From the NCBI GenBank assembly GCA_019244185.1, contig JAFATB010000026.1, positions 156,130 to 220,129 of the forward strand: a stretch of DNA of 64,000 nucleotides, read 5' to 3'. Made by a program: the position numbers and the translations under genes. The notes below the pieces were generated by a model. The model saw only the letters and a list, made by a program, of their open reading frames with translations. It was not told the DNA's origin and searched no databases. Shown piece by piece: positions 5,640 through 58,825 of the stretch (its first letter is position 1; each line of letters opens with the position of its first letter). The DNA is from Acidobacteriota bacterium. GTDB lineage: Bacteria; Acidobacteriota; Thermoanaerobaculia; Gp7-AA8.

Positions 5640-5665
5640 CGCGCTCACGCGTCTGACTCGTGCGC

Positions 5666-7900: not shown

Positions 7901-7902
7901 TC

Positions 7903-10032: not shown

Positions 10033-10134
10033 GACAAACCGTTTCAGCAGTGTGACCACCGTGTCGCGCGAGCGCGATAACGTAAGCGGCACCGCGTTCC
10101 CCGAAGTGCAACGCCTGTTTTGCGAAGGAGGATC

Positions 10135-12240: not shown

Positions 12241-12249
12241 GAGGAATCG

Positions 12250-14382: not shown

Positions 14383-14390
14383 GACCGACC

Positions 14391-29998: not shown

Positions 29999-32900
29999 TC
30001 ACGGCATCCAGAAATCCCGCGGCCACAAACGCACGAGCTGCGTCTCCGCGCCGTCTGCCTTTTTCAGATATGACTCCCACGCGTCGAGCTGCTTGTCGGG
30101 GCCGATCGTGAAGTACACCGCGCCGGCGACGTCGGCGCCTTTCACGTTGTAGCCCGGCAGCGCGCGGCCGTAGACGGCGTCCTTGCGATCGAAGAGCGTG
30201 TCGCCGAGGGCGGGGTCGTTGCGCAGGGCGAGAATCGAGGCGCGGAACTTCTTCACCTGCTCGGGCGGCTGATTGTCCGCGAGATCGTTGGCGATGCCTT
30301 CCGCGCGCGACTCGTACGTCGCGGCGGCGCGGCTCTCGCCGAACACCTGCGCGACGGCGTAGTCGGCGAGGCGCGGGTCGCGCTGCGCGTTCTTCAGCGT
30401 GTCGACGACGAACTTCACCGTCTGCGGGATCTCCGGCGTGCGCTCGGCGTAGTAGCCGGCGCGTCCCGACTGCACGGTCGCGCGCAGGCCGTTGCTGTAC
30501 GCGAGGCCGTTCGCCAGCGTCTTGAGGAAGATGCCGTGCGCGCCGTAGCCGGCGAAGAGGCGCGAGGCGAGGTAGTCAAGCTGTTTACCTTTGTCGTCGT
30601 AGTCGGAAAAGTGCGCCGACGGCACGGACGTGATGATCACGCCGCCTTTCATGTTCGGCGCGAGCAGGCCGATGTACGTGAACTTCGCGTTCGCGTCGCG
30701 GCCGAGGACGCGCGCGTCGACGAGACGCGTGCCGTCTGCCGCGATCGGATTCGAGGGGCCGTTGCCGAGCGATGCCGTCAACAACTCGAGCGACGGGGCG
30801 AGCTGCTTGCCGAGGGACGTCGACGTGACGAGCCACATCCGCGCGCCGCTCTTCGCGAGGAGCTGCTTGCGCGCGGCGTCGAGGGCGGCGAGCGCCTGCG
30901 CCGGCGGCGTGAGCAGATCGTCACGCATCGCGGTAACGAGATACGTCCAGTCGGCGGCGAGGCTGCTGTCGGGAACATCGGTGAGCGTCAGCTCGAGATC
31001 CTTGCGCGCGTCCTGCGCAATCGGCTGCGCCGACGCGGAGAGCGCGCTCACGTTCTGCGCCGCGGCGAGCAGCGCCGCGCGGTCGCCTTTCTGCTGCGCG
31101 AGGTTCGTGAACCACTGCTGCAGCGCGTCGCGATCGGCGGCCGGCGCTTCCTTCAGCAGCCAGCGCAGGCGCAGCGCGTTGTGCGCGCGCGTGAGGAACG
31201 AGTCCGCCGCGAGAAACGCGGGGCTCGACTGCATCCGATACGCCGCCGCGGGGTTCTGCACCCACGACTCTTCCGAGCCCTGCATCGTGTTGCGCAGCGC
31301 GCTCAGCGACTGATCGACGACGTCGCGGATGCGCGCGAGATTCTCCGGCCGCCAGTCGGGATGCTGGAGGACGAGCGACATCCACTCGACCGCGCGCTTC
31401 GCCTCGCCGATGCCGATGCCGGAGCCCGACACGACGAGCTCGACGCGGTTCGTGCGCGGGTTCGTCGAGAAGCGCGCGTCGAGATCGAGGATCTCCTTGC
31501 GCAGCCGCTCCGACATCTCGTCGTACGACACCGGCTTGCCGTTCTCGATCACGCCGACTCGCGTCAAAAGAGCAGGCATGAGCGAGAGATAACGAAGCTG
31601 CTCGCGCGAGAGCGTGTCCGCGCGCAGGACTAGCGCGGCCGTCGCGCTGGACATGTTGTCGAACGTCGACGTGACCATCGGCACGCCGCTGCCGAGCTTC
31701 GACTGCGCGTAGTGCAGCGGATCGTCGAGCGTCATCGGCGGGTTCTTGATGAAGGCCGGCGGCGCGATCGACTTCGCCTCCTCTTCGATGTGCGCGGACT
31801 CCGCTTCCTGCTCGCCCTGATAGCGCTTCAGCGCGGCCTGCACGTCCGTCATCGAGTACTGCTTCGCGAGCCGCTGCGCCTCGGCCTCGGCGCGCGCGGT
31901 GCGCTCGCTCTCCTCGCGCTGCAGCAGGGCGGGACTCGGCTTCGCGGCGACGCCGTACGGCGTGACGTCGGTGAGCTGCCATTCGGCGAGCTTCGTCCGC
32001 CAGAGGTTCTTCCCCGACGCGAGCTGTTTGCGGATCGCGTCGAGCTGCGGCGCGAGCGTCACCGACTTGCGCGCGTCCGGCACGCGCTCGAGCAGCAGCA
32101 GCTGATCCATCCACGACGAGCGCGTGTTGCGGAAGCCGAACGACGGCGGCGTGTTGACGAAGTTCGCGAGCTGGCGCCGCGTGTCGATGAGCCGGTTCAG
32201 CACGCGCTCGTTGAATTCCTTCAGCTCCGGCGAGTCATCGCCGAACGCGGCCACGCGCGCGAGCTCGTCCTGCACGCGCTTGCGCACCTCGGCGATCTTG
32301 TCGCTGGTCAGACTCGCGACCGCGACGTTGTCGAGGATGAGCGAGAACTGCTCCCCCTGATCGCGCTCCACATTGTTGAAGACGCCGGTCGCGCCGGTCT
32401 CCATCACGCGCGTCTTGCTGTCGACGAAGAGCTTGTAGAGGTTCGTCGTCGCGTCGCCGGCGAAGCTGTCGGCGAAGAGCTCGAGCAGGATCGCGTCCTG
32501 CGCGGAGAGATTGACGCGCGTCGCCGGCCAGACCAGTGCGAGAGGGCTCGGCTGCTGGTCGTTGCGGAACGGATACTCGTCGATGCGGATCGTGCCCGTC
32601 GCCGCGGCTTGCGGCGCGGGGAGTGGCTTCGCTGTCGTCGACGGCCGCGACTGCGGCTCCGTCTCGACTTTGGTCAAGATGTTGTCCGTCCGGCTGAGGA
32701 TCTCGGAAATGGGAACGCTCTTCGGGAAGGCGACGATGGTGCCCATGTTGCCGAGGTAGTAGTTCGCGGCGTGGAAGGCCCGGATGTCGGACGGCTGCAT
32801 CGTGCGGATGCCGGACGGCTCGCCGCCGGAGTTGTACGCGAGCGGATGCTGCGCGCCGTAGGTGAGCAGGCCCGCCTCGCGGAAGAGAACGCGGTAGCGG

Positions 32901-33484
32901 TTCGCGCTGGAGCTGGTCATCTCGTTGTAGACCGAGCCCTTTTCCTCGAGCCGCAGCGTGCCGTCGGGATTCGACGTGACGCCGAAGTTGCGCACCTCGC
33001 GGCGGATCTCGACGTCGGTGTAGTTGGGATGCAGGAGCGCGTTGAGCTGCGCGCCGAAGAGATCGAAGAAGACGTCTTTGCCGGCGGTGGTGTTGAAGTG
33101 ATAGCTCGTGCGCCACTGCTGCGTGAACGCGTTCGAGCCGGAGAGCCACATCGTGTCGAGCCCCGCGAACGCGCGGCCGGTCGTGCCCTTGCCGAGGAGG
33201 AGATGCTCCTGCGTGTGCGGCTCGCCCTGATCGCCGACCGGAATCGAGTTCACCCACGTGTAGCCCTGCGGCACCGACTCGATCTGCAGATAGTCGAGCG
33301 TGAAGCCGCTGCGCTTGTGGATGAAGCGCGCGCCGAGCGGCTGCCCCGCGTCGTCGAGGTACACCGCCTCGACGCGGAACCCGTCCGCGACGTCGCCTTT
33401 CTTCAGCTTGTCGAGCGAGAGATCGGCCGCGAATGCGGACAGCGTGACGAGAGCGGAGGCGAGCAGAAGAGCGGACATGCGCAT
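29999..33484 (-). CDS. Secreted M16 (insulinase/PreP-like) zinc metallopeptidase
   Basis: Inverted zincin HTQEH plus KGSVYNEM third ligand; signal peptide; 1161 aa. Confidence 0.8.
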   Translation of the reverse strand: MRMSALLLASALVTLSAFAADLSLDKLKKGDVADGFRVEAVYLDDAGQPLGARFIHKRSGFTLDYLQIESVPQGYTWVNSIPVGDQGEPHTQEHLLLGKGTTGRAFAGLDTMWLSGSNAFTQQWRTSYHFNTTAGKDVFFDLFGAQLNALLHPNYTDVEIRREVRNFGVTSNPDGTLRLEEKGSVYNEMTSSSANRYRVLFREAGLLTYGAQHPLAYNSGGEPSGIRTMQPSDIRAFHAANYYLGNMGTIVAFPKSVPISEILSRTDNILTKVETEPQSRPSTTAKPLPAPQAAATGTIRIDEYPFRNDQQPSPLALVWPATRVNLSAQDAILLELFADSFAGDATTNLYKLFVDSKTRVMETGATGVFNNVERDQGEQFSLILDNVAVASLTSDKIAEVRKRVQDELARVAAFGDDSPELKEFNERVLNRLIDTRRQLANFVNTPPSFGFRNTRSSWMDQLLLLERVPDARKSVTLAPQLDAIRKQLASGKNLWRTKLAEWQLTDVTPYGVAAKPSPALLQREESERTARAEAEAQRLAKQYSMTDVQAALKRYQGEQEAESAHIEEEAKSIAPPAFIKNPPMTLDDPLHYAQSKLGSGVPMVTSTFDNMSSATAALVLRADTLSREQLRYLSLMPALLTRVGVIENGKPVSYDEMSERLRKEILDLDARFSTNPRTNRVELVVSGSGIGIGEAKRAVEWMSLVLQHPDWRPENLARIRDVVDQSLSALRNTMQGSEESWVQNPAAAYRMQSSPAFLAADSFLTRAHNALRLRWLLKEAPAADRDALQQWFTNLAQQKGDRAALLAAAQNVSALSASAQPIAQDARKDLELTLTDVPDSSLAADWTYLVTAMRDDLLTPPAQALAALDAARKQLLAKSGARMWLVTSTSLGKQLAPSLELLTASLGNGPSNPIAADGTRLVDARVLGRDANAKFTYIGLLAPNMKGGVIITSVPSAHFSDYDDKGKQLDYLASRLFAGYGAHGIFLKTLANGLAYSNGLRATVQSGRAGYYAERTPEIPQTVKFVVDTLKNAQRDPRLADYAVAQVFGESRAAATYESRAEGIANDLADNQPPEQVKKFRASILALRNDPALGDTLFDRKDAVYGRALPGYNVKGADVAGAVYFTIGPDKQLDAWESYLKKADGAETQLVRLWPRDFWMP

Positions 33485-47183: not shown

Positions 47184-47210
47184 GGTGCGGTGTTACCATG
47201 CGCCGTTCCC

Positions 47211-47714
47211 ATGCAGCGCAATCAGGTCCTCTTCCTCGTCAAATTCTTTCTGATCCTCGTCGCGGCGTACCTGCTCATCGCCTGGACGCCGGTCAACGAC
47301 CGCGTGATCGTGCCGTTCACGCACGGCGTGGCCGCGGCGTCGGGCGCGCTGCTCAACGGCATCGGCCAGCACGTCGCCGTCGACGGCACGGTCATCCGCT
47401 CGCCGCGCTTCGGCGTGAACATCAACAACGGCTGCAACGGCGTCGAGGCGATGCTGATCCTGCTCGCGTCGATCGTGGCCTTCCCCGCGTCGCCGAAGCA
47501 GCGCGCGATCGGGCTGTTGCTCGGCGCGATCGCCGTGCAGGCGCTCAACGCGATCCGCATCGTGACGCTCTATCTCCTCGGCGCGTATCAGCCGCGCCTC
47601 TTCGACATCTTCCACACCGCCGTCTGGCAGATCGCGATCATCCTCGCGGCCATCGGATTCTTCCTCGCATGGAGTGCACGGGTTGCCCCGACTCGACTGG
47701 CGAACCGCGCTTAA
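47211..47714 (+). CDS. xrtH: Exosortase H
   Basis: GCNGVEA (Cys), NAIRI (Arg), FHTAVWQ (His) triad; compact exosortase form. Confidence 0.85.
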   Translation: MQRNQVLFLVKFFLILVAAYLLIAWTPVNDRVIVPFTHGVAAASGALLNGIGQHVAVDGTVIRSPRFGVNINNGCNGVEAMLILLASIVAFPASPKQRAIGLLLGAIAVQALNAIRIVTLYLLGAYQPRLFDIFHTAVWQIAIILAAIGFFLAWSARVAPTRLANRA

Positions 47715-48258
47715 GGCTCTCGCCGGCTTTCTCACCGGCCTCGCGCTGTGGGTCGTGCTCACGCCGCTCTACGACCGCGTCATCGGCGCGGGCGCGGAAG
47801 CGACGCTGCGCGCGTTCGAGAGCCCGTCCGTGACGCGCCTCCATCGTGAGGCCGACGGCTACACGACCGTCGACCGCAGCGACTTCGACCCGCGCTCGAA
47901 ACAGCGGCCGACCGTCGCCATCAAAGACCTCACCTTCAACTTCGTGCTGCTCGCCGCGCTCTTCGCGATCGCGAAGCGGCCGTTCTCCGATCGCAACATC
48001 GGCGGCTTTCTCGCGGCCTCGGCCGCGCTCGCGGTCACGCACGTCGGCGCGACGATCGCGGAAGTCATGTCGATCTACGTCGCGAAGCTCGGCATCTGGA
48101 GCACCGTGCATTACGGCGAGACGGCGCGCAACATCTGGGGCGTCACCGCCACGTTCTACCGCGTCGTGCTGATGTACGCGATCGTCTTCGCGCTCTGGTT
48201 CGTCTTCCGCGATCCCGGCGCCGCGCCGGTGCCGAAGAAAAAGAAGCGAGCGCGCTGA
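47674..48258 (+). CDS. Exosortase-associated membrane protein
   Basis: Overlaps xrtH 3' end; TM helices; basic tail. Confidence 0.7.
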   Translation: MHGLPRLDWRTALKALAGFLTGLALWVVLTPLYDRVIGAGAEATLRAFESPSVTRLHREADGYTTVDRSDFDPRSKQRPTVAIKDLTFNFVLLAALFAIAKRPFSDRNIGGFLAASAALAVTHVGATIAEVMSIYVAKLGIWSTVHYGETARNIWGVTATFYRVVLMYAIVFALWFVFRDPGAAPVPKKKKRAR

Positions 48259-48265
48259 AGCGTCC

Positions 48266-48327
48266 CGCAGTTGCGGACGCGAAACGGCGCGCGCAGTTGC
48301 GGACGCCAAACGGCGCGCGCAGTTGCG
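48266..48327. repeat. 26-bp tandem repeat (about 2.4 copies)
   Basis: CGCAGTTGCGGACGC(G/C)AAACGGCGCG; the core CGCAGTTGCG starts at 48266, 48292 and 48318. Confidence 0.85.
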
Positions 48328-48375
48328 CGCGTCCGCCGCGCGAGGTAAAACAGACGCTTCCGGAGGATTGCTGCG

Positions 48376-49281
48376 ATGCGTCTGGTCACGCGTGGTGACC
48401 TCGACGGCCTCACGAGCGCCGTCATCATCACGATGAAGGAGCCGGTGGACGAGCTCCTGCTCGTGCATCCGCAGGACATCACCGACCAGCGCGTCGACAT
48501 CCGCTCCGACGACATCCTCACGAACCTGCCGTACGACCCGCGCTGCGGCATGTGGTTCGATCACCATCTCCTCACCGACAGCAACCAGCGTCCCTCCGGC
48601 GCGTTCCGCGGCCGCTACGACATCGCGCCGTCGGCGGCGCGGCTCGTGTACGACTACTACCTCGAACAGGCACCCGACGATCCCGCGCTGCTGCGCCTCG
48701 CGCCGCTCGTCGACGAGACCGACCGCCTCGACGCCGCGCTCCTCACGCCCACCGACGTCGAGTCGCCACGCGACTACATCCTCCTCGGCTACACGATGGA
48801 CAGCCGCACCGGCCTCGGCGCGTTCGACGATTACTTCCGCAAGCTCGTCGCCTGGCTCAAGACGATGTCCATCGACGAGGTGCTCGCGCAGCCGGATGTC
48901 CGCGAACGCGTGGAACGCATCCGCGCCGATCAGGCGGACTTCAAGCGCCTCCTCGTGCGCAACAGCTTCCTGCTGAACAACGTCGTCGTCACCGACCTGC
49001 GCGAGATCGACCGGCTCCCCGCCGGCAACCGCTTCCTCGTCTACTCGCTCTTCCCGCAGGCGAACGTCTCGCTGCGCGTGCACTGGGGACCGCGCGAGAA
49101 CAGCGTCATCGCCGCGGTCGGCCACAGCATCTTCAACCGCACGTGCAAGACATCGGTGGGCGAGCTGATGTCGCGCTTCGGCGGCGGCGGCCACCGCGGC
49201 GCCGGCACGTGCGTCCTCCCCGTGGAGCGCGCGGCCGACGCCATCGATGAGATCCTCTACGAACTGCAGGCGAACGGATGA
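48376..49281 (+). CDS. DHH/DHHA1 phosphoesterase (exopolyphosphatase/nanoRNase-like)
   Basis: GGAGG RBS; TRGDLDG, FDHH, PSAAR, GGGGHRGAG. Confidence 0.88.
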   Translation: MRLVTRGDLDGLTSAVIITMKEPVDELLLVHPQDITDQRVDIRSDDILTNLPYDPRCGMWFDHHLLTDSNQRPSGAFRGRYDIAPSAARLVYDYYLEQAPDDPALLRLAPLVDETDRLDAALLTPTDVESPRDYILLGYTMDSRTGLGAFDDYFRKLVAWLKTMSIDEVLAQPDVRERVERIRADQADFKRLLVRNSFLLNNVVVTDLREIDRLPAGNRFLVYSLFPQANVSLRVHWGPRENSVIAAVGHSIFNRTCKTSVGELMSRFGGGGHRGAGTCVLPVERAADAIDEILYELQANG

Positions 49282-51566
49282 AACTACGCACCGCGCTCCT
49301 CCTGGTCCTCGCGCTTGCCGCGCCCGCGTTCGCGGCGTCGAATCAGAACGTCGTCGAAGGCAACAGCGGCCTCACCATCGTGCGCGTCACGTTCACGATT
49401 CCGGCGCCGGTGAATCTGCCGGTCACCGGGCATTACGAGACGGTGGACGGCACGGCCACCGCGGCCGACAACGACTACCAGCCCGTGAGCGGCGACTTCG
49501 TCATTCCGTCGGGCCAGACGTCGAGCGAGCCGGTCGACATCCCGATCGTCGGCGACACGAAAGTGGAGTCCGACGAGACGTTCCAGCTCGTCCTCAGCAA
49601 CATCCAGAACGGCGCCGAGCTCGATCCCGGTCCGTACTCCTTCACGATCGTCAACGACGACGCGCCGGTCATCAGCGTCACCGGCACCTCCGTGCGCGAA
49701 GGCAACTCTGGCACGACCGCGCTGCCGTTCGACATCGTGCTCGGCGCGCCGGCGGCGACGCCGCTGCAGATCGCATACACCACGATCCCCGGCACGGCGA
49801 CGGCGGGCGAGGACTACGTCCCCGCGAACGCCACCGTGACGTTCGCGCCGGGCGAGGTGCGCAAGACCGTGAACGTCACGGTGATCGGCGACACGCGATT
49901 CGAGCCCGACGAGACGCTCACGCTCGTCGCCGCGCAGTCCGGCCTGCCGCCGTCCGCACCCGCGAGCGCCGTCGGCACGATCATCAACGACGACACGCGC
50001 CCGGCCGCGAGCCTCACCATCGTCAGCGGCAACAACCAGAGCGGGCGGCTCGGCCAACCACTCGCGCAGCCGCTGGTCGTGCAGGTCAACGACGCTGCGG
50101 GCGCGCCCGTCGCCGGCGCAACCGTGCAGTGGAGCGTGACGCGCGGCGCCGCGCAGCTCGATCCCGCCACGAGCACGACCAACGCGGAAGGACGCGCGTC
50201 GACGATCGTGACGCCGAACAGCGTCGGCGCCATCGACATCCGCGCGAGCTCCGGCGATCTGCCGCCGGTCACGTTCACGATCGCCGCGCAGACGACGCTC
50301 GAAGCGCGCGCGAACGGCCCGGTCGCGAAACCGATCGCGCACGTGCTCGACGGCGTCTGCGCGCGCAACGAAGAGCCGTTCACGCTCGTCTGCCGCGCGC
50401 TCGAACGCCTGCCCGACACCGACCTCACGCCCGCCCTCGAGCGCATCGCGCCGCAGCAGGCGGGCGCGCAGTCGAAGATCGCCGGCGAGATCATCGCGAA
50501 CATCACCGCGAGCCTCAGCGCGCGCCTCGCCGAACGCCGCGCCGGCGCGCGCTTCTCGCTGCAGCACGCGTCGCTCTCGATCGGCGGACAGCCCGTGCCC
50601 GTGGCCATCGTCGCGAACGCGCTCCTCGAACAGACCGGCACCGGCGCCGCGACGGGCGACGCGAACGGCGACGACTACAACGGCTGGTCCGCGTTCGTCA
50701 GCGGCAATCTCGGCACCGGCGAGCGTCGCGCGAGCTCCGGCGCGCTCGGCTTCGATCTCGATACAAGCGGCGTGATGGTGGGCGTCGATCGGCAGTTCGG
50801 CGAGAACATCTTCGGCCTCTCCGCGAACGCCGGCTGGCTCGACGCGACGCTCAGCGCCGGCACCGGCACCGTCGACACGACGAACTACGCGCTCTCGCTC
50901 TACGGCAGCCGCGGCGGTCTCTTCGCCGGCAGCGCCGCGCCGTCCACCGGCACGTCGATGCATTACGACGGCGTGCATCTCGAAGGCAGCCTCACCGCCG
51001 GACGCAGCCAGTTCGACGCCACGCACATCGTGAGCGTGCCGCTCCTGCCGTCGTCGACCGCGCACAGCTCGAACGATGCGACGCTCTTCGCGCTCACCGC
51101 GGGGGGCGGCGTCGACGCGCATCGCGGCCGCACCGACTTCGACTTCGCGCTCTCCGGCACGTGGTCGCGCACGCGGATCGACGACCTCGCCGAAAGCGAC
51201 GCCGGTCCGCTGGTGCTCTTCGTCGATGGACACGACATCGAGTCGCTCGTCGCCAACGCGGGACTCGACGTCCGCTCCGCGATCGCGGTGCCGTTCGGCA
51301 CGCTGATGCCGACGTTCCGCGGTGAGCTCGTGCACGAGTTCCGCAGCGCGGCGCGCCTCGTCACCGCGCACTTCCTGCACGACCATCTCGGCACCGGCTT
51401 CACGATTCCGGTCGATCAGCCGGACGCGAACTACGGCAAGCTGTCGGCGGGCCTGCAGGCGGTCTTCCCGCGCGGCGTCTCCGCGTTCGTCGAGGTGACG
51501 CAGGACGTGGCGCGCTCCGACTTGCGCTTCCGTACGCTGCAGTTCAATCTGTCGAAGTCGTTCTGA
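49278..51566 (+). CDS. Autotransporter-like outer membrane protein: two Calx-beta + Ig-like + beta-barrel
   Basis: EGNSG..DGTATA..DY..GDT..E.DETF twice; SGNNQSG..PLVVQV Ig-like domain; barrel ending LSKSF. Confidence 0.85.
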   Translation: MKLRTALLLVLALAAPAFAASNQNVVEGNSGLTIVRVTFTIPAPVNLPVTGHYETVDGTATAADNDYQPVSGDFVIPSGQTSSEPVDIPIVGDTKVESDETFQLVLSNIQNGAELDPGPYSFTIVNDDAPVISVTGTSVREGNSGTTALPFDIVLGAPAATPLQIAYTTIPGTATAGEDYVPANATVTFAPGEVRKTVNVTVIGDTRFEPDETLTLVAAQSGLPPSAPASAVGTIINDDTRPAASLTIVSGNNQSGRLGQPLAQPLVVQVNDAAGAPVAGATVQWSVTRGAAQLDPATSTTNAEGRASTIVTPNSVGAIDIRASSGDLPPVTFTIAAQTTLEARANGPVAKPIAHVLDGVCARNEEPFTLVCRALERLPDTDLTPALERIAPQQAGAQSKIAGEIIANITASLSARLAERRAGARFSLQHASLSIGGQPVPVAIVANALLEQTGTGAATGDANGDDYNGWSAFVSGNLGTGERRASSGALGFDLDTSGVMVGVDRQFGENIFGLSANAGWLDATLSAGTGTVDTTNYALSLYGSRGGLFAGSAAPSTGTSMHYDGVHLEGSLTAGRSQFDATHIVSVPLLPSSTAHSSNDATLFALTAGGGVDAHRGRTDFDFALSGTWSRTRIDDLAESDAGPLVLFVDGHDIESLVANAGLDVRSAIAVPFGTLMPTFRGELVHEFRSAARLVTAHFLHDHLGTGFTIPVDQPDANYGKLSAGLQAVFPRGVSAFVEVTQDVARSDLRFRTLQFNLSKSF

Positions 51567-51571
51567 TCCGC

Positions 51572-53056
51572 ATGCGCTCCGCCGCCGCGCTCTTGTTGCT
51601 GCTCGCTGTCTTCGCGCCGATCCTGCGCGCGCAGAACGCCGACGATCTCGTGCTCGTCGACTGCCGCCTGCCGCCGAAGATGAAACGCATCGGCGGGCGC
51701 ACGTATCCGGTCGCTGCGCGTCCGATCCGCACGACCGCGCTCGACTGCCGCATTCGCGGCGGCGAGTACACGGTGTACGACCGCGCGAACTACGCAACGT
51801 CGCTCAAGATCTGGCTCGACGCCGCGGAGAAAGGCGATCGCGACGCGCAGTACTACGTCGGCAAGCTCTACGAAGGCGGCCTCGGCACGCCGCCCGATTT
51901 CGCCGCCGCCGCGCGCTGGTACGCGAAGGCCGCCGACGCGGGCCTCAGCGCCGCGCAGTTCAGCCTCGGGACGCTCTACGAAAAGGGCCTCGGCGTTCCC
52001 GCCGATCCGGCCAAAGCGTTCGCGCTCTATCGCCGCGCCTCGGGACTGCCGGACAACGTCGTGCTCGTCGAGAGCGCGAAGTACGAGGAGCTCGAGCGCG
52101 CCGCGAACGACCTCGCCGCGCGCGAGCAGGAGATCGACGAGCTGCAACGCCAGCTCGACGACGCGCGCAAACAGCACAAGCTCGATCATCAGCGCGAGCG
52201 CGAGCTCACGCAGCAACTCGACGCCGCGAAACAAAAGGCGGACACGCAGCGCAAAGACGTCGCCAGCAAACGCAACGCGGTGCACGTCGCCGCGACGAAT
52301 GCCGCGCCGCTGCCGTCCGCGAAGCGCGGGACGCTCGGACGCTACGTCGCGCTCGTCATCGGCAACGCGACGTACGACCATCTGCCGCCGATGCCGTCGG
52401 CCGAAACGAACGCGCGCGCCGTGGCCGCGCTGCTGCGCGACGCGTACGGCTTCGACGTCACGCTGCTCCTCAACGCGCGCAACGACGCCATCCTCGCCAG
52501 CCTCTACAAACTGAGCCAGACGCTCGGCGAGAACGACAATCTCGTCGTCTACTACGCCGGCCACGGCCGCCGCGACCTGCGCAACCGGCGCGGCTGGTGG
52601 CTGCCTGCCGACGCGGATGCCGACGCCGCCGCGAAGACGAACTGGCTGCCGAATCAGGACGTCAGCGACCGGCTCGCGCTCGTGCCCGCGCGGCACATCC
52701 TCGTCCTCGCCGACGCGTCGTACGTCGGCGACATCACCCGCGGCGCGCCGCAGCCCGCGCCTTCGAACCTCACCGCCGCGCAGTGGTCGAAGTATCTCGA
52801 GACGACGAAGAGCCGCCGCGCGCGGCTCGCGCTCTCGTCCGGCGCGGACGAGCCGTCCGCCACCGGCTCGCGCTTCACGGCCGCGCTGCTCGAAGTGCTG
52901 CAAAAGCAGAAGGGCGTCGTGCCCGCGTCGCGCATCCACCAGGAGGTGGTCAACGTGTTGACCGCCGACGAGCGAGTGACCTCCGCCGTGCCGATCTTCG
53001 CGCCGCTGCAGTCGGCGTTTCACGACGGCGTCGACTTCCTCTTCGAGCGCCGATGA
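51572..53056 (+). CDS. Secreted Sel1-repeat + coiled coil + caspase-like (C14) protein, catalytic Cys to Ser
   Basis: Signal peptide; AQYYVGKLYEGGLG / AQFSLGTLYEKGLG Sel1 repeats; YVALVIGN, YYAGHG, LADASY. Confidence 0.88.
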   Translation: MRSAAALLLLLAVFAPILRAQNADDLVLVDCRLPPKMKRIGGRTYPVAARPIRTTALDCRIRGGEYTVYDRANYATSLKIWLDAAEKGDRDAQYYVGKLYEGGLGTPPDFAAAARWYAKAADAGLSAAQFSLGTLYEKGLGVPADPAKAFALYRRASGLPDNVVLVESAKYEELERAANDLAAREQEIDELQRQLDDARKQHKLDHQRERELTQQLDAAKQKADTQRKDVASKRNAVHVAATNAAPLPSAKRGTLGRYVALVIGNATYDHLPPMPSAETNARAVAALLRDAYGFDVTLLLNARNDAILASLYKLSQTLGENDNLVVYYAGHGRRDLRNRRGWWLPADADADAAAKTNWLPNQDVSDRLALVPARHILVLADASYVGDITRGAPQPAPSNLTAAQWSKYLETTKSRRARLALSSGADEPSATGSRFTAALLEVLQKQKGVVPASRIHQEVVNVLTADERVTSAVPIFAPLQSAFHDGVDFLFERR

Positions 53057-54843
53057 GCACCGTTCTCGACGAGATCGCGGAGCGCTTCGACGTCCTCGCC
53101 AAGCTCGGCGAGGGCGGCATGGGCTGCGTCTACAAGGTCCGCCACCGCGACCTCGACGAAGTGCAGATCGTGAAGACGCTGCAGGCGCACCTCAGCACGA
53201 ACGAAGGGCTGCGCACGCGCTTCATCAATGAGGCGCGCCGAGGAATGAGGTTGAGGCATCCGCACATCGCGGGAGTGCATGATTTTCACGTCTGCGCGGA
53301 CGGCACCGGCTACATCGTGATGGAGTACGTGCACGGCCTCAATTTGCGCGACCTCGTCAGCGCGCGCGGGCCGCTGCGCGTGCCGCTCGTCGGCGCGATC
53401 GCCTTGCAGACGCTCGACGCGCTCGGCTACCTGCACAGCCAGAAGTTCGTTCACCGCGACATCTCGCCCGACAACCTGATCCTCACGCAGACCGCCGACG
53501 GCCACCCGTTCGTCAAGCTCATCGACCTCGGCATCTCGAAGTCGCTCGACGAAGGCAACACCATGACCCAGACCGGCCAGTTCCTCGGCAAGGTTGCGTA
53601 CGCGTCGCCCGAGCAGTTCGGCGGCCACGTGGACGGCCGCAGCGATCTCTATTCGTTCGGCGTCGTGCTCTACAAGCTACTGACGAACGAGGAGCCGTTT
53701 GCCGGCGAGAACTACCGCGAGATCATCAGCGCGCATCTCTTCCAGAAGCCGCGGCCGTTCCCGCCGGAGCTCGAGATTCCGGACGCCGTCCAGCAGGTCG
53801 TGTTCCGCGCGCTCGAGAACGAGCCGGCACATCGCTACGCCGACGCCCACGAGTTCGCGGATGCCGTCGAGGAAGCGTTCGGCGTGCAGCGCGAGCGGAC
53901 GACGCGTCCCGCGCTCGAACGCATCTCGCGCGCCGAAGACGCGACGCTCGTCGACGGCGAGACGACGGCGATCGACACCACCGTCGCGGAGACGTCGTTC
54001 GCCGCGGCACCGACCATCGGCGAAACGGTCGTCGCGCGTCCGCGCGCGTCGCGGCGCTGGCCGTTACTCGCAGCTATCGTCCTCGTGCTGCTCGTCGCCG
54101 GCGCGCTCGTCTGGCAGCGGATGCACGCGGCCGCGCTCGCGCGCTACGGCAACTTCTACGCGGTCGTCATCGGCGAAGGGGAGTACCGCAAGTTCGAAGC
54201 GCTGCCCACCGCCGTCGACGACGCGCGCGCCGTCGCGCAGTTGCTCGAGTCGCGATACGGCTTTCACGTAACGCGGCTCGAGAACGCGAAGCAGCAGGAG
54301 ATCCTCGCCGCGCTGAACGCCGTCGGCAAGCAGCTCACGCCCGCCGACAACCTGCTCGTCTTCTACGCCGGCCACGGCTCGCTGCTCAACGGCAAGGGCT
54401 ACTGGCAGCCGGTCGACGCCGGCTTCGACATGACGAACTGGATCTCGCCCGCGCTCGTGAAAGACGCGCTGCTCGATCATCCCGCGCGCCGTGCGCTCGT
54501 CATCGCCGACACGTGCTATTCCGGCGCGCTCGTGCACGGCGCGCTCGCGACGTTGCCGCCCGATGAGCGCTTGACGAAACGCGCGCGTCTCGTCCTCAGC
54601 TCCGGCGGCACCGCGCCGGTGATCGACTCCGCCGACGGCCGTCACTCGATCTTCACGCGCGCACTCCTCGACGTCCTCGGCGAGCGCGGACGCGGCGTCA
54701 CCGACGTGCAGTCGATCTTCACGCCGATTGAGGCGCGCGTCATCGACGCCGCCCGGCGCGACGGCCACGAGCAGAAGCCGGAGCTCGCCGCGATGGCCGA
54801 GGTGGGGGATGAGGGCGGGACGTTCTACTTCGTCAGGCGCTGA
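53053..54843 (+). CDS. Ser/Thr protein kinase - TM - caspase-like (C14) fusion
   Basis: GEGGMG, HRDISPDN, DLG, ASPE, SDLYSFG; TM WPLLAAIVLVLLVAGALVW; FYAGHG and ADTCYSG dyad. Confidence 0.92.
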   Translation: MSTVLDEIAERFDVLAKLGEGGMGCVYKVRHRDLDEVQIVKTLQAHLSTNEGLRTRFINEARRGMRLRHPHIAGVHDFHVCADGTGYIVMEYVHGLNLRDLVSARGPLRVPLVGAIALQTLDALGYLHSQKFVHRDISPDNLILTQTADGHPFVKLIDLGISKSLDEGNTMTQTGQFLGKVAYASPEQFGGHVDGRSDLYSFGVVLYKLLTNEEPFAGENYREIISAHLFQKPRPFPPELEIPDAVQQVVFRALENEPAHRYADAHEFADAVEEAFGVQRERTTRPALERISRAEDATLVDGETTAIDTTVAETSFAAAPTIGETVVARPRASRRWPLLAAIVLVLLVAGALVWQRMHAAALARYGNFYAVVIGEGEYRKFEALPTAVDDARAVAQLLESRYGFHVTRLENAKQQEILAALNAVGKQLTPADNLLVFYAGHGSLLNGKGYWQPVDAGFDMTNWISPALVKDALLDHPARRALVIADTCYSGALVHGALATLPPDERLTKRARLVLSSGGTAPVIDSADGRHSIFTRALLDVLGERGRGVTDVQSIFTPIEARVIDAARRDGHEQKPELAAMAEVGDEGGTFYFVRR

Positions 54844-54857
54844 TCTTCAGACGCCGA

Positions 54858-56084
54858 TCAGATATCCGGCCAGTGCCGCAGCAGCGACGGCGTCGAGTGC
54901 GCGAGGTACAGCACCGCGTCGAACTTCGCGCCGAAGTCCGCCGGCAGATCGAGCGTCGCCGCATCGGGTGACGGCACGGCCGAGCCGGCGATGCGCATGC
55001 GGTGCGTGCCCGCGAGCCACGGCGGCAGCGGCGCGTGCAGCGGGACGATCATCGCGTCGAGCCGCGCTTGTGCGAGAAGCCGCGCGAAGTCGTCGGGCGA
55101 CGGCGCCGTCATCTGCTGCGCGCCGATGAAGCCGTCGAAGGTGCCGGGCAGATACTCGACGGCGAGGAACGTGCCGTCGAGCAGCGCGGAGCCGAGGGCG
55201 AAGTAATCGTTGCCGAACGTCGCGGCGAGCGATGAGCCGGCGCTGCGGATCGGACGCGGATCCTGCAGCACGTAGTCGGTGCGTCCCCAATGCTCGTTGT
55301 GCCCGAGGACGACGACGCGGTCGCGTTGCGCGAGCCAGGTGAGGTTCTCCGCCATCGCCGCGTCGCGCGCGTTGCGGTCGCCGGCGGCGACGCGCTCGCT
55401 CTGTTCGACGATGCGCGCGGCGTGGAGCACTTCATCGAGCTCGGGCGACGGCGGATGTGACGCGAGCGACGTGCGCACGCCGGCGATGAGAGAACGGCAG
55501 CGCTCATCGCCGCGATACGACGCGCCCATGCACGCGTAGTTCGCCTGCGCTTCCTCGGCCGCGGCGGGATCGATGCGACCGAGGTAGTCGACGACGACGC
55601 GCATGGCACCGGCGGTGGGATCGACGCCGGCGATGCGGATCGGCGGCGTGAGCCCGGCGGCGTTCTGCGCGCGCGCCCACATGAGGAGGTCGAAGACTTC
55701 CTGCGCGTCCCAGAACCAGTAGCGCGCGAGTGCGAGCGCGGCCGCGGGATCGCCGCTGCCGTGCACGATGTAGTCGTCGAGTTGCGCGTACTCCGCGTAC
55801 GGCGCCTCGAACGCGATCGTGCGGAAGCCGGCATCGACGAGCGCCGGCACGAGCTGCTGCTTCGACGCGAAGAGCTCGTGCGTGCCGTGCGTGGCGTCGC
55901 CGAGGGCGACGATGCGGGCGTTCGAGACGAGGCGCAGGAAGGGTGAGAGGGTGCCGTCGATGCGGATCGCGCGCTGCCGCAGCCACGCGGCGGGCGTGTC
56001 GACGTCGCCGGAGCGCACCGCGCGCACGCGTGCGGCGAGCGGCAGCGCGAGAATCATGGCGAGGAAGAGTGTGGCGCGTTTCAT
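54858..56084 (-). CDS. Erythromycin esterase family protein (secreted)
   Basis: VALGDATHGTHE, GFRTIAFE, RDAAMAEN, HNEH, FDAVLY; signal peptide. Confidence 0.85.
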   Translation of the reverse strand: MKRATLFLAMILALPLAARVRAVRSGDVDTPAAWLRQRAIRIDGTLSPFLRLVSNARIVALGDATHGTHELFASKQQLVPALVDAGFRTIAFEAPYAEYAQLDDYIVHGSGDPAAALALARYWFWDAQEVFDLLMWARAQNAAGLTPPIRIAGVDPTAGAMRVVVDYLGRIDPAAAEEAQANYACMGASYRGDERCRSLIAGVRTSLASHPPSPELDEVLHAARIVEQSERVAAGDRNARDAAMAENLTWLAQRDRVVVLGHNEHWGRTDYVLQDPRPIRSAGSSLAATFGNDYFALGSALLDGTFLAVEYLPGTFDGFIGAQQMTAPSPDDFARLLAQARLDAMIVPLHAPLPPWLAGTHRMRIAGSAVPSPDAATLDLPADFGAKFDAVLYLAHSTPSLLRHWPDI

Positions 56085-56100
56085 CTGCGATGATGGCTGC

Positions 56101-56523
56101 ATGCTGCAGCTCCGCGTCGCCGGACCTCACGAGGCGGGTTGGATCAATGAACGCTACGCCGCGGTGGAGTTCATCCCGTCCGACCTCGCGCGCGAAACGG
56201 TCGTCGTCGCGGAAATCGACGGCGCGCCCGCCGGCCTCGGCCGTCTGGTACCGCTCGACGACGACACGTACGAGCTCGGCGGCATGCTCGTGTTCGAAGC
56301 ATTCCGCGGCCGCGGCATCGCGCGCGCGATCGTCGACGAGCTGCTGCGCCGCGCGAAGGGCCGCGTCGTCTACTGCATTCCGTTCGCGGAGCTCGAGTCG
56401 TTTTACGCGGGCGCCGGCTTCGTGCGCGTCGACGATGCACCGCAGCTCCGCGAGAAGCTCGCGTGGTGCCGCGGCACGTACGCAAAGTCCGTCGTGTTGA
56501 TGCGGCACGGCTCTGCTCCATAA
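56101..56523 (+). CDS. GNAT N-acetyltransferase
   Basis: ELGGMLV..FRGRGIA, FY..AGF. Confidence 0.85.
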   Translation: MLQLRVAGPHEAGWINERYAAVEFIPSDLARETVVVAEIDGAPAGLGRLVPLDDDTYELGGMLVFEAFRGRGIARAIVDELLRRAKGRVVYCIPFAELESFYAGAGFVRVDDAPQLREKLAWCRGTYAKSVVLMRHGSAP

Positions 56524-57884: not shown

Positions 57885-58009
57885 GCGGGCATCCTACCTC
57901 CCGCGCGGCGGGCGCTGCTTTTTTGCGGAAGTGTGCGCGGGCTCACATCCGGGCAAATGGGTTTCCGTGGAGAATGCACCCCTCACAAATCGGTAGGAGG
58001 AAAGAACTC

Positions 58010-58825
58010 ATGCGCAGGATCCTGGCTGCGGTTTGCCTCGTCCTCGGGGCGACCGGTGCAATGGGACAGGTGATCACGTCGCTCGATCCCCCCAGCTTCA
58101 AGGCGAATAGCGGCGAATGGTTTTTGACTGCGAACGGCCGCTACGTCGGCGACACGTTCGTTTACAACGGTCCGGCCGGCACGTTCAAAGTCGATGCGAA
58201 CGCGGTCGACACCACGTTCTCGACCGCCTGGGTGCCGCTCGAAGTGCTCGCCAAGCCCGGCCTCTACACGCTCACCGTCGAAGGGCCGAACGGCACGACC
58301 GATCCGGTCGAGTTCAAGGTGACCTCGCCGCCGCGCGTGCCGAACCTCACGCTCGTGCTGCCCGAGACGCTCGTCGCCGCGGCGCGGACGACCAAGGGCA
58401 ACTACGTGAAGTACGACGTCACTGCCTTCGGCGGCAGCGTTTCCGACGCGGTGGTACGGTGCGATCCGGCCTCCGGTTCGTTCTTCTACACCGGCACGAA
58501 TCGCGTCAGCTGCACCGCGTCGAACAGCGCCGGCGAGACGGCCTCCGACGTCTTCACCATCAGCGTCATCGACGACGCGCCGACGATCCGGCTGCCGAAC
58601 GACATCGTGGTGCCGCCCGCCAGCGACCGCGGCACGTTCGTGAAGTACGACGTCACTGCCTACGACGACGTCGACGCCGCCGCGGTCCCGGTGAGCTGCA
58701 AGCCCGCCTCGGGCGAGCTGTTCCCGGTCGGCCTCACGTTCGTCGAATGCACCGCCTCCGACTCCGTCGGCAACGTCGCCTCCGCGTCGTTCAGCGTGAA
58801 CGTCACCGACGAGAAGCCGCGGTAA
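58010..58825 (+). CDS. Secreted Ig-like + two HYR-domain protein
   Basis: AGGAGG RBS, signal peptide, repeats C.PASG..F..G...V.CTA. Confidence 0.85.
   Translation: MRRILAAVCLVLGATGAMGQVITSLDPPSFKANSGEWFLTANGRYVGDTFVYNGPAGTFKVDANAVDTTFSTAWVPLEVLAKPGLYTLTVEGPNGTTDPVEFKVTSPPRVPNLTLVLPETLVAAARTTKGNYVKYDVTAFGGSVSDAVVRCDPASGSFFYTGTNRVSCTASNSAGETASDVFTISVIDDAPTIRLPNDIVVPPASDRGTFVKYDVTAYDDVDAAAVPVSCKPASGELFPVGLTFVECTASDSVGNVASASFSVNVTDEKPR

Follow-up and report, generated by a model that had tools for sequence, protein, structure and literature searches.

We analysed a 64,000-nucleotide stretch (the window) of a genome of an Acidobacteriota bacterium (GCA_019244185.1, contig JAFATB010000026.1), in which four same-strand open reading frames, here g1 to g4, lie directly one after the other. 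The start of g2 overlaps g1, and the start of g4 overlaps g3, by an ATGA at 49278 and 53053 respectively, while g2 and g3 are separated by a 5-bp gap (51567-51571), as read directly from the sequence. All four frames show GC3 values of 0.83-0.93, typical of real genes in this genome. The coordinates, gene overlaps and domain calls of a preliminary description of the locus, which had listed a DHH phosphoesterase, a Calx-beta autotransporter, a Sel1-caspase and a kinase-TM-caspase, were thus confirmed, as was its assignment of Cys488 as the catalytic Cys of g4; it had not noticed that g3 lacks a catalytic Cys.

Features of the locus, with positions in the window and the evidence for each.
Feature	Position	Strand	Description	Evidence
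g1	48376..49281	+	PggH-like DHH/DHHA1 phosphodiesterase, 301 aa; abuts the conserved cassette but is not part of it	PDB 7d62 (PggH), E 7.7e-61 over residues 2-299; weak DHHA1 hit only; paralogue at 47% identity on another contig (C21); no homologue in 7 + 80 related loci
g2	49278..51566	+	Type Va autotransporter, 762 aa; N-terminal signal peptide, two Calx-beta domains, Big_1 Ig-like domain, Cys-containing helical linker, C-terminal beta-barrel ending in Phe	Pfam PF03160, PF02369 and PF03797 above cut-off; hydrophobic N-terminus; only PF03797 match in the 5.3-Mb genome
g2 Calx-beta	49656..49991	+	Best-scoring Calx-beta stretch, residues 127-238; a second copy lies upstream	Pfam
g2 Big_1	50073..50252	+	Ig-like domain, residues 266-325	Pfam
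g2 barrel	50694..51497	+	Autotransporter beta-barrel, residues 473-740	Pfam; pre-barrel linker alignable with cousins' autotransporters
g3	51572..53056	+	Secreted (predicted) Sel1-repeat pseudocaspase, 494 aa	Pfam Sel1 x2 and Peptidase_C14; AF2 model pLDDT 87.2, pTM 0.87; best solved matches MALT1, metacaspases and caspases
g3 N-terminal domain	51632..51781	+	Small beta domain of no known family, about residues 21-70; putative disulfide (inferred)	Cys59 invariant and Cys31 conserved in at least 90% of 80 sequences; AF2 model
g3 Sel1	51782..52042	+	Sel1 repeat helices, about residues 71-157	Pfam; AF2 model
g3 hairpin	52076..52285	+	Long helical hairpin / coiled coil, about residues 169-238	AF2 model
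g3 C14	52343..53047	+	Caspase-fold domain; His331 (52562-52564) kept, catalytic Cys replaced by Ser383 (52718-52720)	Alignment of relatives; sequence
g4	53053..54843	+	Bitopic Hanks Ser/Thr kinase-TM-caspase, 596 aa	Pfam Pkinase and Peptidase_C14; one hydrophobic segment
g4 kinase	53089..53841	+	Kinase domain, residues 13-263	Pfam; Lys41, His134-Arg135-Asp136, Asn141 and Asp158-Leu-Gly160 invariant in 22 of 22 orthologues
g4 TM	54046..54132	+	Hydrophobic stretch containing the single transmembrane helix, about residues 336-354	Only internal hydrophobic 19-mer, more Arg on the kinase side; 20 of 22 orthologues have exactly one such segment
g4 C14	54157..54792	+	Periplasmic (predicted) caspase domain; His441 (54373-54375), Cys488 (54514-54516)	Pfam; both residues invariant in 22 of 22 orthologues

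The domain assignments of g2, g3 and g4 all lie above the Pfam gathering scores. The C14 domains (PF00656) score 65.4 bits in g3 and 87.8 bits in g4 against a cut-off of 21.4, the g4 kinase domain (PF00069) scores 143.6 bits and carries the ATP-anchoring Lys, the HRD catalytic loop with its Asn and a DFG-type Mg loop, and the g2 barrel (PF03797) scores 103.2 bits against a cut-off of 26. No Pfam or NCBIfam model hit g1 above threshold, but g1 aligns along its full length, including its 'fdhh' and 'ggggh' motifs, with the solved DHH/DHHA1 enzyme named PggH by its depositors, a phosphodiesterase specific for pGpG, so that the earlier DHH call holds. Apart from the g4 segment, the only hydrophobic 19-mers are N-terminal in g2 and g3, consistent with signal peptides, and both caspase-fold domains are predicted to lie in the periplasm. 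The g3 model best matches MALT1, GSU0716, Yca1, AtMC9 and caspase-4/-7, with E values from 7e-9 to 2e-6, supporting a caspase-haemoglobinase fold. The two C14 domains are each other's closest relatives in the genome (39% identity).

To determine which of the four genes belong together, a criterion on which the preliminary description had itself proposed to stand or fall, we surveyed related genomes and loci. Sel1-C14 orthologues (E<=1e-40) and kinase-C14 orthologues occur in the same 8 of 41 genomes searched (the genome studied here, G000, and G005, G009, G012, G013, G017, G031 and G039), and neither was found in the other 33. In 7 of 7 relatives' loci examined, all three of g2, g3 and g4 are adjacent, in three different gene orders. 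Among the best-scoring 80 of 199 loci encoding a Sel1-C14 relative, 49 carry an autotransporter barrel gene in the flank, as detected with our own HMM and confirmed with PF03797 in 10 of 10 tested, and 56 carry a Hanks kinase; of the loci with at least 5 kb on both sides, 17 of 17 from Acidobacteriota and 24 of 25 from Pseudomonadota have an autotransporter or a kinase. These 80 loci include many close kin, and the counts are not independent events. A g1 homologue was found in 0 of the 7 and 0 of the 80 loci, indicating that g1 is a bystander and that the conserved unit is a three-gene cassette of autotransporter, Sel1-pseudocaspase and kinase-TM-caspase.

The survey also revealed a split between the two caspase domains. 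In 81 Sel1-C14 sequences, the catalytic Cys column reads C 39, V 18, S 11, A 7, L 2, H 2, E 1 and I 1, whereas His is kept in 80 of 81. Cys is kept in 0 of 36 Acidobacteriota loci and in 38 of 43 Pseudomonadota loci. The g3 caspase domain cannot be a cysteine protease and is therefore a pseudo-peptidase, while the kinase-linked domain retains its complete His-Cys dyad. Across loci, 21 of 21 with a complete kinase-caspase fusion have a Cys-less Sel1-C14, and 0 of 39 Cys-bearing loci have the fusion. In 5 of 5 genomes whose autotransporter and pseudocaspase locus lacks a kinase, a kinase-TM-caspase with GHG and DSC motifs is encoded elsewhere.

Gammaproteobacterial cousins, which include cultured Halomonas, Billgrantia and Marinibactrum strains, keep the same triad logic, with an autotransporter, a Sel1-caspase that retains Cys, and a bitopic Hanks kinase without its own caspase domain, having one TM and a periplasmic tail of about 125 aa. 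The Sel1-caspase family is thereby linked to autotransporters and bitopic Hanks kinases across two phyla. The triad is not universal, since in Halomonas-type loci neither the Sel1-C14 (Val at the Cys position) nor the kinase has a live caspase, and no autotransporter lies within 10 kb. Of the 43 Pseudomonadota loci, 18 carry type VI secretion (T6SS) genes in the flank, among which TssK, DotU, IcmF and a TagF_N + PP2C_2 fusion were confirmed by Pfam and TIGR03373. NCBIfam gives no specific name to the cousins' kinase, hydrolase or Sel1-caspase, and public names for g3 and g4 relatives are only 'caspase family protein', 'protein kinase', 'hypothetical' and automatic Bud32 labels.

To ask whether the two C14 domains could pair, we predicted their complex. 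The prediction gave only weak support, with a median score of 0.41 (runs 0.73, 0.34 and 0.41) against 0.03 for the best of three controls, a partner pLDDT of at least 88, and runs agreeing in at least 98% of contacts. In calibration, the mark was reached by 58 of 80 solved complexes and 2 of 110 mismatches, but at 0.60 or under it was reached by only 7 of those 80 solved complexes and by both mismatches. Moreover, caspase dimers are abundant among solved structures, so the result may reflect likeness rather than binding.

Together, these data suggest, with moderate confidence, that g2-g4 (49278-54843) form a trans-envelope sensor feeding a Ser/Thr kinase, gained and lost as a block, with g1 a housekeeping-type pGpG phosphodiesterase that merely abuts it in this genome. 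The gene structure, domain content, co-conservation and loss or retention of the catalytic residues rest on direct analysis of the sequences, while the working of the cassette, including compartment, surface exposure of the passenger, protein-protein contacts, proteolysis and phosphorylation, is inferred from sequence and prediction alone. In this view, the autotransporter, whose Calx-beta and Ig-like passenger varies in length and repeat number between relatives, would be the outer-membrane input or anchor, and the Sel1-pseudocaspase would be the periplasmic adaptor, a pseudo-protease acting as a binding module. Contact between these two is assumed rather than explained, since the passenger of a classical autotransporter faces outward. 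The adaptor's caspase-fold domain would pair with the caspase domain of the kinase, as pseudo-caspases pair with live caspases, bringing kinase molecules together for trans-autophosphorylation and/or switching on the periplasmic protease. The strictly conserved dyad implies that a cleavage step, of an as yet unidentified substrate, belongs to the cycle, and the output would be cytoplasmic Ser/Thr phosphorylation. The cassette itself carries no phosphatase, FHA protein or obvious substrate gene.

The earlier interpretation, in which a surface cue is relayed by caspase-domain pairing to kinase activation or proteolysis in contact sensing, defence or programmed death, is therefore partly supported. 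Co-conservation of g2, g3 and g4 and the predicted shared compartment of the C14 domains hold; membership of g1 does not, any pairing would be a live/dead heterodimer rather than two proteases, and defence or programmed death is not supported by any specific evidence. Its statement that no characterised system with this architecture was known needs qualifying, because the TagQ/TagR(-TagST)-PpkA module of the Pseudomonas aeruginosa H1-T6SS, the closest known system, has the same logic of outer-membrane component, soluble dimerising periplasmic adaptor and bitopic Hanks kinase activated by induced proximity (PMC13713981, PMC13584744). In the published model, a TagR dimer stabilised by TagQ binds two PpkA periplasmic domains and so dimerises the kinase (PMC13713981), and by analogy the family of the cassette would work like this sensor module. 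The two systems share no domains: TagQ is a lipoprotein, TagR uses an FGE-sulfatase domain rather than Sel1 plus a caspase fold, and the periplasmic domain of PpkA is not a caspase. No Pfam hits to such domains or to the TagST ABC-type pair were found in g2-g4, and g3 has no lipobox Cys near its signal peptide. The cassette (contig C10) is also not in a T6SS cluster and has no Fha, PppA or TagST partners nearby.

Other known systems resemble parts of the cassette. Prokaryotic orthocaspases and metacaspases share the Peptidase_C14 fold, Sel1 (6% of 671 sequences) and TM helices (15%) are described fusion partners, and pseudo-variants with a mutated dyad are common and of unknown role (PMC3501461, PMC7475262, PMC6426788). 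The described pseudo-orthocaspases, however, mostly carry Tyr-Ser or Tyr-Asn in place of the dyad, whereas here His is kept and only Cys is lost, and we found in passages of these papers no periplasmic live/dead pair, kinase fusion, or autotransporter or T6SS linkage. MALT1 and the caspase-8/cFLIP heterodimer are likewise caspase-fold systems controlled by dimerisation, in which a catalytically dead paralogue pairs with and regulates a live one and the protease doubles as a scaffold in a kinase-linked pathway, but they are eukaryotic and cytosolic, the structural similarity is only at 15-18% identity, and pairing here is only weakly predicted. In the EACC1-caspase two-gene conflict system, a membrane-associated component is proposed to activate a caspase-superfamily protein (PMC7159879); the corresponding NCBIfam model, NF047832, is the best caspase model hit, but its scores of 77.1 and 84.4 bits fall below the cut-off of 140, no small TM gene lies within the contiguous g2-g4 block, there are no variable effector domains, and that system is described as actinobacterial and linked to a multicellular habit. 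In the TslA-OmpA contact-sensing pathway of Acinetobacter/Burkholderia T6SS, an outer-membrane beta-barrel protein and a T6SS-cluster-encoded periplasmic protein relay a surface event to the inner membrane, but TslA is helical with a disordered tail, acts on TssM, and involves no kinase or caspase fold (PMC9251886).

Two alternatives survive as unlikely readings. In the first, the cassette is an autotransporter maturation or quality-control module, in which the periplasmic caspase processes the passenger, the linker or other envelope proteins during export and the kinase is a secondary regulator. The autotransporter and Sel1-C14 are indeed the tightest pair, with 31 of 36 Acidobacteriota loci having the autotransporter, several without a neighbouring kinase, and both the conserved g4 dyad and the Cys retained in most Pseudomonadota Sel1-C14 proteins would fit. 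However, at five loci where the pair stands alone with full flanks (L031, L036, L044, L045 and L060), the Sel1-C14 is Cys-less (V or H), so that this pair relationship cannot be proteolytic; Halomonas-type loci have the family without any nearby autotransporter, and this reading does not explain why a Hanks kinase is fused to the protease in 22 of 22 orthologues.

In the second, the cassette is the missing threonine-phosphorylation input of the T6SS that this genome encodes on another contig (C6, about 119-134 kb). That cluster has no kinase of its own, the cousins often lie in or beside T6SS genes with TagF-PP2C, and 4 of 8 cassette genomes have TssC against 5 of 33 without the cassette, although this contrast rests on related genomes and is not independent. 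Against this, 0 of 36 Acidobacteriota loci have T6SS genes in the flank, the C6 cluster has no FHA gene, and four genomes have the cassette but no TssC match, two of them (G031 and G039) 99-100% complete. The T6SS analogy therefore cannot simply be transferred, and the target of the kinase in this organism need not be the T6SS.

An anti-phage, abortive-infection or programmed-death cassette, with a surface receptor-like autotransporter sensing attack and the caspase or kinase executing a suicidal or defensive response, appears less likely still. The distribution is patchy (6 of 25 genomes of the genus, including G000), the genomic context differs at every insertion, and one relative (locus L014) has a TIR-NB-ARC-TPR gene next door. 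Among PADLOC models, g4 scores highly on mad6 and on PD-T4-6, down to E 1e-74, but these models cover the generic kinase domain, and the hits may reflect generic Hanks-kinase similarity; g2 has no PADLOC hit, g3 has only a weak one (4.3e-6), no EACC1-like gene is present, both caspase domains are predicted to be periplasmic, away from phage replication, and flanks are mostly ordinary metabolism genes, without a recognisable defence island. A four-gene operon in which g1 is a functional member, for example linking c-di-GMP/pGpG turnover to the envelope signal, rests only on the ATGA overlap, which suggests co-transcription in this genome, and is largely refuted by the neighbourhood survey; the paralogue elsewhere in the genome and the full-length similarity of g1 to a stand-alone solved enzyme also speak against it.

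A more far-reaching possibility, which we regard as unlikely although the data do not rule it out, is a periplasmic live/dead caspase switch, in which a secreted pseudo-caspase, positioned by the autotransporter, heterodimerises with the caspase ectodomain of a receptor kinase and gates both proteolysis and kinase signalling. This would be a bacterial counterpart of cFLIP/caspase-8 or MALT1-type signalling, and the wider family would then be an undescribed class of envelope-damage or contact sensors that triggers type VI secretion in Gammaproteobacteria. Caspase-fold proteins are common in bacteria, yet almost none has a known role, and their dead variants are a standing puzzle. Here, a live (dyad-bearing) and a dead caspase domain, predicted to share a compartment, are encoded side by side and tied to a receptor kinase and an outer-membrane protein, with conservation across two phyla, providing concrete, testable hypotheses for what a bacterial pseudo-caspase does. 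The gammaproteobacterial cousins, which could be studied genetically, would be a second, unrelated solution to how T6SS senses the envelope, so far answered only by TagQRST-PpkA, RtkS and TslA/OmpA. Literature searches found no paper linking a caspase-domain or Sel1-caspase protein to T6SS, to PpkA-type kinases or to autotransporters, and a 2026 review of T6SS accessory factors has no occurrence of 'caspase', 'Sel1' or 'autotransporter' in its main text, although supplementary tables of that review, of PMC3501461 (domain architectures) and of PMC7159879 might list the kinase-caspase or Sel1-caspase architectures.

Regarding the origin of the kinase's caspase domain, a quick tree (104 rows) and a careful tree (54 rows, after dropping 6 long-branch or odd rows and thinning) agree that the Acidobacteriota and Gammaproteobacteria Sel1-C14 clades are each solid (99/98 and 100/99), but do not decide whether the kinase's C14 is sister to all Sel1-C14 domains (94/50) or to the Acidobacteriota ones (not rejected, p-AU 0.33). 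A search of the Atlas with the g3 N-terminal domain (residues 21-82) returned only the same family and unnamed small proteins. A search of representative sequences with whole g3 was inflated by Sel1 repeats (7086 hits at E<=1e-30) and was not used for counts. A promoter and terminator scan of 47500-55500 was uninformative, finding 0 sigma-70-like promoters and 1 terminator-like site on the minus strand inside g3, fewer than the 3.7 expected from shuffles. Base composition shows no island signature, with GC of 0.66-0.72 across the cassette and its flanks.

The region contains four open reading frames on the plus strand, each with the codon-position GC pattern of real genes in this roughly 70% GC genome, and we read the junctions as the preliminary description had given them, with ATGA overlaps between the first and second (g1, g2) and the third and fourth (g3, g4) genes and a 5-bp gap between g2 and g3. 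The observation itself is confirmed. The next gene downstream is convergent and belongs to the erythromycin-esterase family, while RsmE, a short exosortase/EpsH-like gene (174 aa) and an overlapping 194-aa open reading frame with only a weak membrane-protein-like hit lie upstream. The 117-bp spacer before g1 holds a 26-nt unit (CGCAGTTGCGGACGC..AAACGGCGCG) repeated 2.5 times in tandem with overlapping GC-rich palindromes, which may be an operator, an attenuator or a terminator of the upstream gene.

Coordinates of the genes and sequence elements considered here. C4 and C6 are other contigs of the same genome; L014, L080, L085 and L094 are loci of relatives.
Feature	Sequence	Coordinates	Strand
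Four-gene region, g1–g4	window	48376-54843	+
ATGA overlap, g1/g2	window	49278	+
5-bp gap, g2/g3	window	51567-51571	+
ATGA overlap, g3/g4; ATG start of g4	window	53053	+
Erythromycin-esterase family gene	window	54858-56102	-
Spacer with tandem repeat, upstream of g1	window	48259-48375	
Short exosortase/EpsH-like gene	window	47190-47714	
194-aa open reading frame	window	47674-48258	
CarboxypepD_reg/Plug gene	window	1391-4417	
Tandem run of four similar-sized genes	window	5660-14382	
Third gene of the run	window	10120-12240	
Fourth gene of the run	window	12250-14382	
819-aa open reading frame	window	14013-16472	+
1161-aa open reading frame	window	29999-33484	-
300-aa open reading frame with HYR domain	window	57923-58825	
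Further Peptidase_C14 gene	C4	727330-728097	
Further Peptidase_C14 gene	C4	110036-110809	
Further Peptidase_C14 gene	C6	99398-99853	
TssC of the T6SS cluster	C6	126278	
TIR-NB-ARC-TPR gene	L014	13364-15703	
Sel1-caspase frame with internal stop	L080	2254-3732	
Alpha/beta-hydrolase gene	L085	8971-9867	-
Alpha/beta-hydrolase gene	L094	8546-9463	-

The g1 product (301 aa) has no Pfam or NCBIfam hit above threshold, but aligns end to end with the solved DHH/DHHA1 enzyme PggH (PDB 7d62, E 7.7e-61); it has no signal peptide, and a 47% identical paralogue is encoded on contig C21 of the same genome. The g2 product (762 aa) has a signal peptide, two Calx-beta domains, a Big_1 domain and an autotransporter barrel, and is the only PF03797 gene in the 5.3-Mb genome. 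The g3 product (494 aa) has a signal peptide, Sel1 repeats and a Peptidase_C14 domain, with a predicted mature protein of residues 21-494. An AlphaFold2 model built from 80 aligned relatives (pLDDT 87.2, pTM 0.87) shows a small five-stranded N-terminal domain, the Sel1 helices, a long helical hairpin and the C14 domain, which Foldseek places nearest to MALT1 paracaspase, GSU0716, yeast and plant metacaspases and caspases. The N-terminal domain matched no named family when searched by itself; within it, Cys59 is invariant and Cys31 is at least 90% conserved. The g4 product (596 aa), whose true start is an ATG rather than the upstream GTG of the longest open reading frame, is a Hanks kinase with all catalytic residues, one transmembrane helix and a C-terminal Peptidase_C14 domain. 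With the kinase in the cytoplasm and a single helix, the g4 caspase domain should be periplasmic, in the same compartment as secreted g3, an inference from hydropathy and charge. Three further Peptidase_C14 genes occur in this genome, in open frames of 757-885 aa; they are only distantly related to the two domains of the cassette, and one lies about 20 kb from the T6SS cluster.

In g3 the catalytic histidine (His331) is present, but the cysteine position holds Ser383. Across 81 family members this column reads C 39, V 18, S 11, A 7, L 2, H 2, E 1, I 1, while the histidine is kept in 80 of 81. Even within the closest clade the residue varies between Ser and Ala, so Ser383 is not a conserved replacement nucleophile. 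None of 36 Acidobacteriota loci keeps the cysteine, whereas 38 of 43 Pseudomonadota loci do. By contrast, His441 and Cys488 of the kinase-linked caspase domain are invariant in 22 of 22 orthologues, as are the kinase catalytic residues.

To determine which genes are inherited together, we searched 41 genomes, comprising the window's own (G000) and 40 relatives, three of them unpublished (G002, G024 and G030, all negative). The kinase-caspase and the Sel1-caspase occur in the same eight genomes (G000, G005, G009, G012, G013, G017, G031 and G039), and neither was found in the other 33 with these queries. In 7 of 7 fetched loci the autotransporter, Sel1-caspase and kinase-caspase genes are adjacent; the gene order is that of the window in five loci and autotransporter, kinase, Sel1 in G031, while in G039 the kinase is divergent from the other two. 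Homologues of g1 and of every other flanking gene of the window are absent from these 7 loci and from 80 wider loci, and the flanks differ from locus to locus, carrying amidase, PhoX-like, TIR-NB-ARC-TPR, catalase, prolyl oligopeptidase and DUF4388 genes. The TIR-NB-ARC-TPR (STAND-type) gene lies immediately downstream of the cassette in one relative, G005 (locus L014). The unit is therefore g2–g4, which moves as a block, and g1 is a neighbour by accident of insertion.

A pattern scan of one genome per species found 199 loci encoding a g3 relative, of which the best 80 were kept: 36 from Acidobacteriota (mostly labelled Thermoanaerobaculia), 43 from Pseudomonadota (mostly Gammaproteobacteria, including cultured Halomonas, Billgrantia and Marinibactrum) and one other. 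The cultured cousins include Halomonas heilongjiangensis DSM 26881, H. salifodinae JCM 14803, Billgrantia campisalis A4 and Marinibactrum halimedae NBRC 110095 (loci L056, L059, L052 and L094). Several hundred paired g3/g4 sequences are present in metagenomes. A hidden Markov model of the barrel finds an autotransporter gene in the flank of 49 of the 80 loci (31 of 36 and 18 of 43, respectively), and Pfam confirmed PF03797 in 10 of 10 tested. The passengers are long and Calx-beta rich in Acidobacteriota (roughly 340 to about 1,900 residues before the barrel) and short and domain-less in Gammaproteobacteria (about 120-440 residues), while the pre-barrel linker is alignable throughout. In one Acidobacteriota MAG (locus L080) the Sel1-caspase reading frame contains an internal stop codon, suggesting a possible pseudogene or an assembly error, and two separate barrel hits in adjacent open frames of the same locus suggest that the autotransporter gene may be interrupted too.

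A Hanks kinase lies in the flank of 23 of 36 Acidobacteriota and 33 of 43 Pseudomonadota loci. The kinase carries its own caspase domain in 21 complete Acidobacteriota cases, plus one cut by a contig end, and in 0 of 43 Pseudomonadota cases. The live/dead pattern is complementary, as all 21 loci with the fusion have a Cys-less Sel1-caspase and none of the 39 Cys-bearing loci has the fusion. Five Acidobacteriota genomes have only the autotransporter and pseudocaspase at the locus, and all five encode a kinase-TM-caspase with an intact dyad elsewhere. Exceptions exist, however, since Halomonas-type loci and one Ectothiorhodospiraceae locus have a Cys-less Sel1-caspase with a kinase that has no caspase domain.

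In 18 of 43 Pseudomonadota loci the flank holds T6SS genes. In Halomonas the order is TssK, TssL (DotU-OmpA), TssM, a TagF-PP2C fusion, the kinase, an alpha/beta-hydrolase on the opposite strand and then the Sel1-caspase, as confirmed by Pfam and TIGR03373. The hydrolase gene, wedged between the kinase and the Sel1-caspase and usually on the opposite strand, occurs in 26 of 43 Pseudomonadota loci (including L085 and L094) and in 1 of 36 Acidobacteriota loci, and may be a fourth member of the gammaproteobacterial version. The kinases of these loci have one transmembrane helix and a helical periplasmic tail of about 125 residues. This is the genomic signature of a threonine-phosphorylation input to T6SS, for which the published model in P. 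aeruginosa is that an outer-membrane lipoprotein (TagQ) stabilises a dimer of periplasmic TagR, which binds two PpkA ectodomains and dimerises the kinase (PMC13713981). Mutants in tagQ, tagR or ppkA lose induced firing. We found no paper tying a caspase-fold or Sel1-caspase protein to this pathway, and the main text, supplements aside, of a 2026 review of T6SS accessory genes does not contain the words ‘caspase’, ‘Sel1’ or ‘autotransporter’.

To assess whether the two caspase-fold domains could pair, the g4 ectodomain (residues 362-596, 22-row alignment) was folded together with the g3 caspase domain (residues 250-494, 80-row alignment). The median score was 0.41 (runs 0.73, 0.34 and 0.41) against a best control of 0.03, which rates as weak support: in calibration the mark was reached by 58 of 80 solved complexes and 2 of 110 mismatched pairs, but at 0.60 or under it was reached by only 7 of those 80 solved complexes and by both mismatches. 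Caspase dimers are also well represented among solved structures, so the pass may reflect likeness. Partner pLDDT was at least 88, and the runs agreed in at least 98% of contacts. The two domains are each other's closest relatives in the genome (39% identity), with the trees not resolving whether the domain of the kinase arose from the Acidobacteriota Sel1-caspase or is sister to the whole family.

Sequence and comparison establish the parts, their predicted compartments, the dead and live dyads, the block inheritance and the cross-phylum association with autotransporters and bitopic kinases. The working of the cassette, on the other hand, is inferred: the autotransporter would be the input or anchor, the pseudocaspase an adaptor that pairs with the caspase domain of the kinase, and this pairing would drive kinase activation and a proteolytic step on an as yet unidentified substrate. 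The interpretation in the preliminary description is partly supported, with three genes rather than four and a live/dead caspase pair rather than two proteases. A characterised analogue exists in logic, TagQ/TagR-PpkA, though not in parts, and the cassette would be a trans-envelope kinase sensor built from caspase-fold modules; it is testable in the cultured gammaproteobacterial cousins.

The T6SS reading transfers only weakly to this genome. G000 has a T6SS cluster on contig C6, with no kinase or FHA gene in it, and no Acidobacteriota locus has T6SS genes in its flank (0 of 36). Among the 41 genomes, 4 have both cassette and TssC, 4 have the cassette only (of which G031 and G039 are 99-100% complete), 5 have TssC only and 28 have neither, showing some enrichment, but among kin, and clearly no dependence. 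A rival idea, that the cassette serves autotransporter maturation, is opposed by the observation that where only the autotransporter and Sel1-caspase are linked, the caspase is dead; the conserved relationship is therefore one of binding rather than cleavage. A role in defence or PCD is opposed by the lack of specific defence hits, the predicted periplasmic location of both caspase domains and the T6SS link of the cousins, although the patchy, mobile distribution keeps this reading alive at low probability.

Elsewhere in the window, a CarboxypepD_reg/Plug (TonB-receptor-like) gene precedes a tandem run of four similar-sized genes (706-746 aa), of which the first two are sulfatase and TPR fusions and the next two have no Pfam hit at E<=1e-4. 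Two large open reading frames, of 1161 aa and 819 aa, have coding-type GC3 but likewise no Pfam match at E<=1e-4. Finally, a 300-aa open reading frame carries an HYR domain, which is more familiar from animal extracellular proteins.
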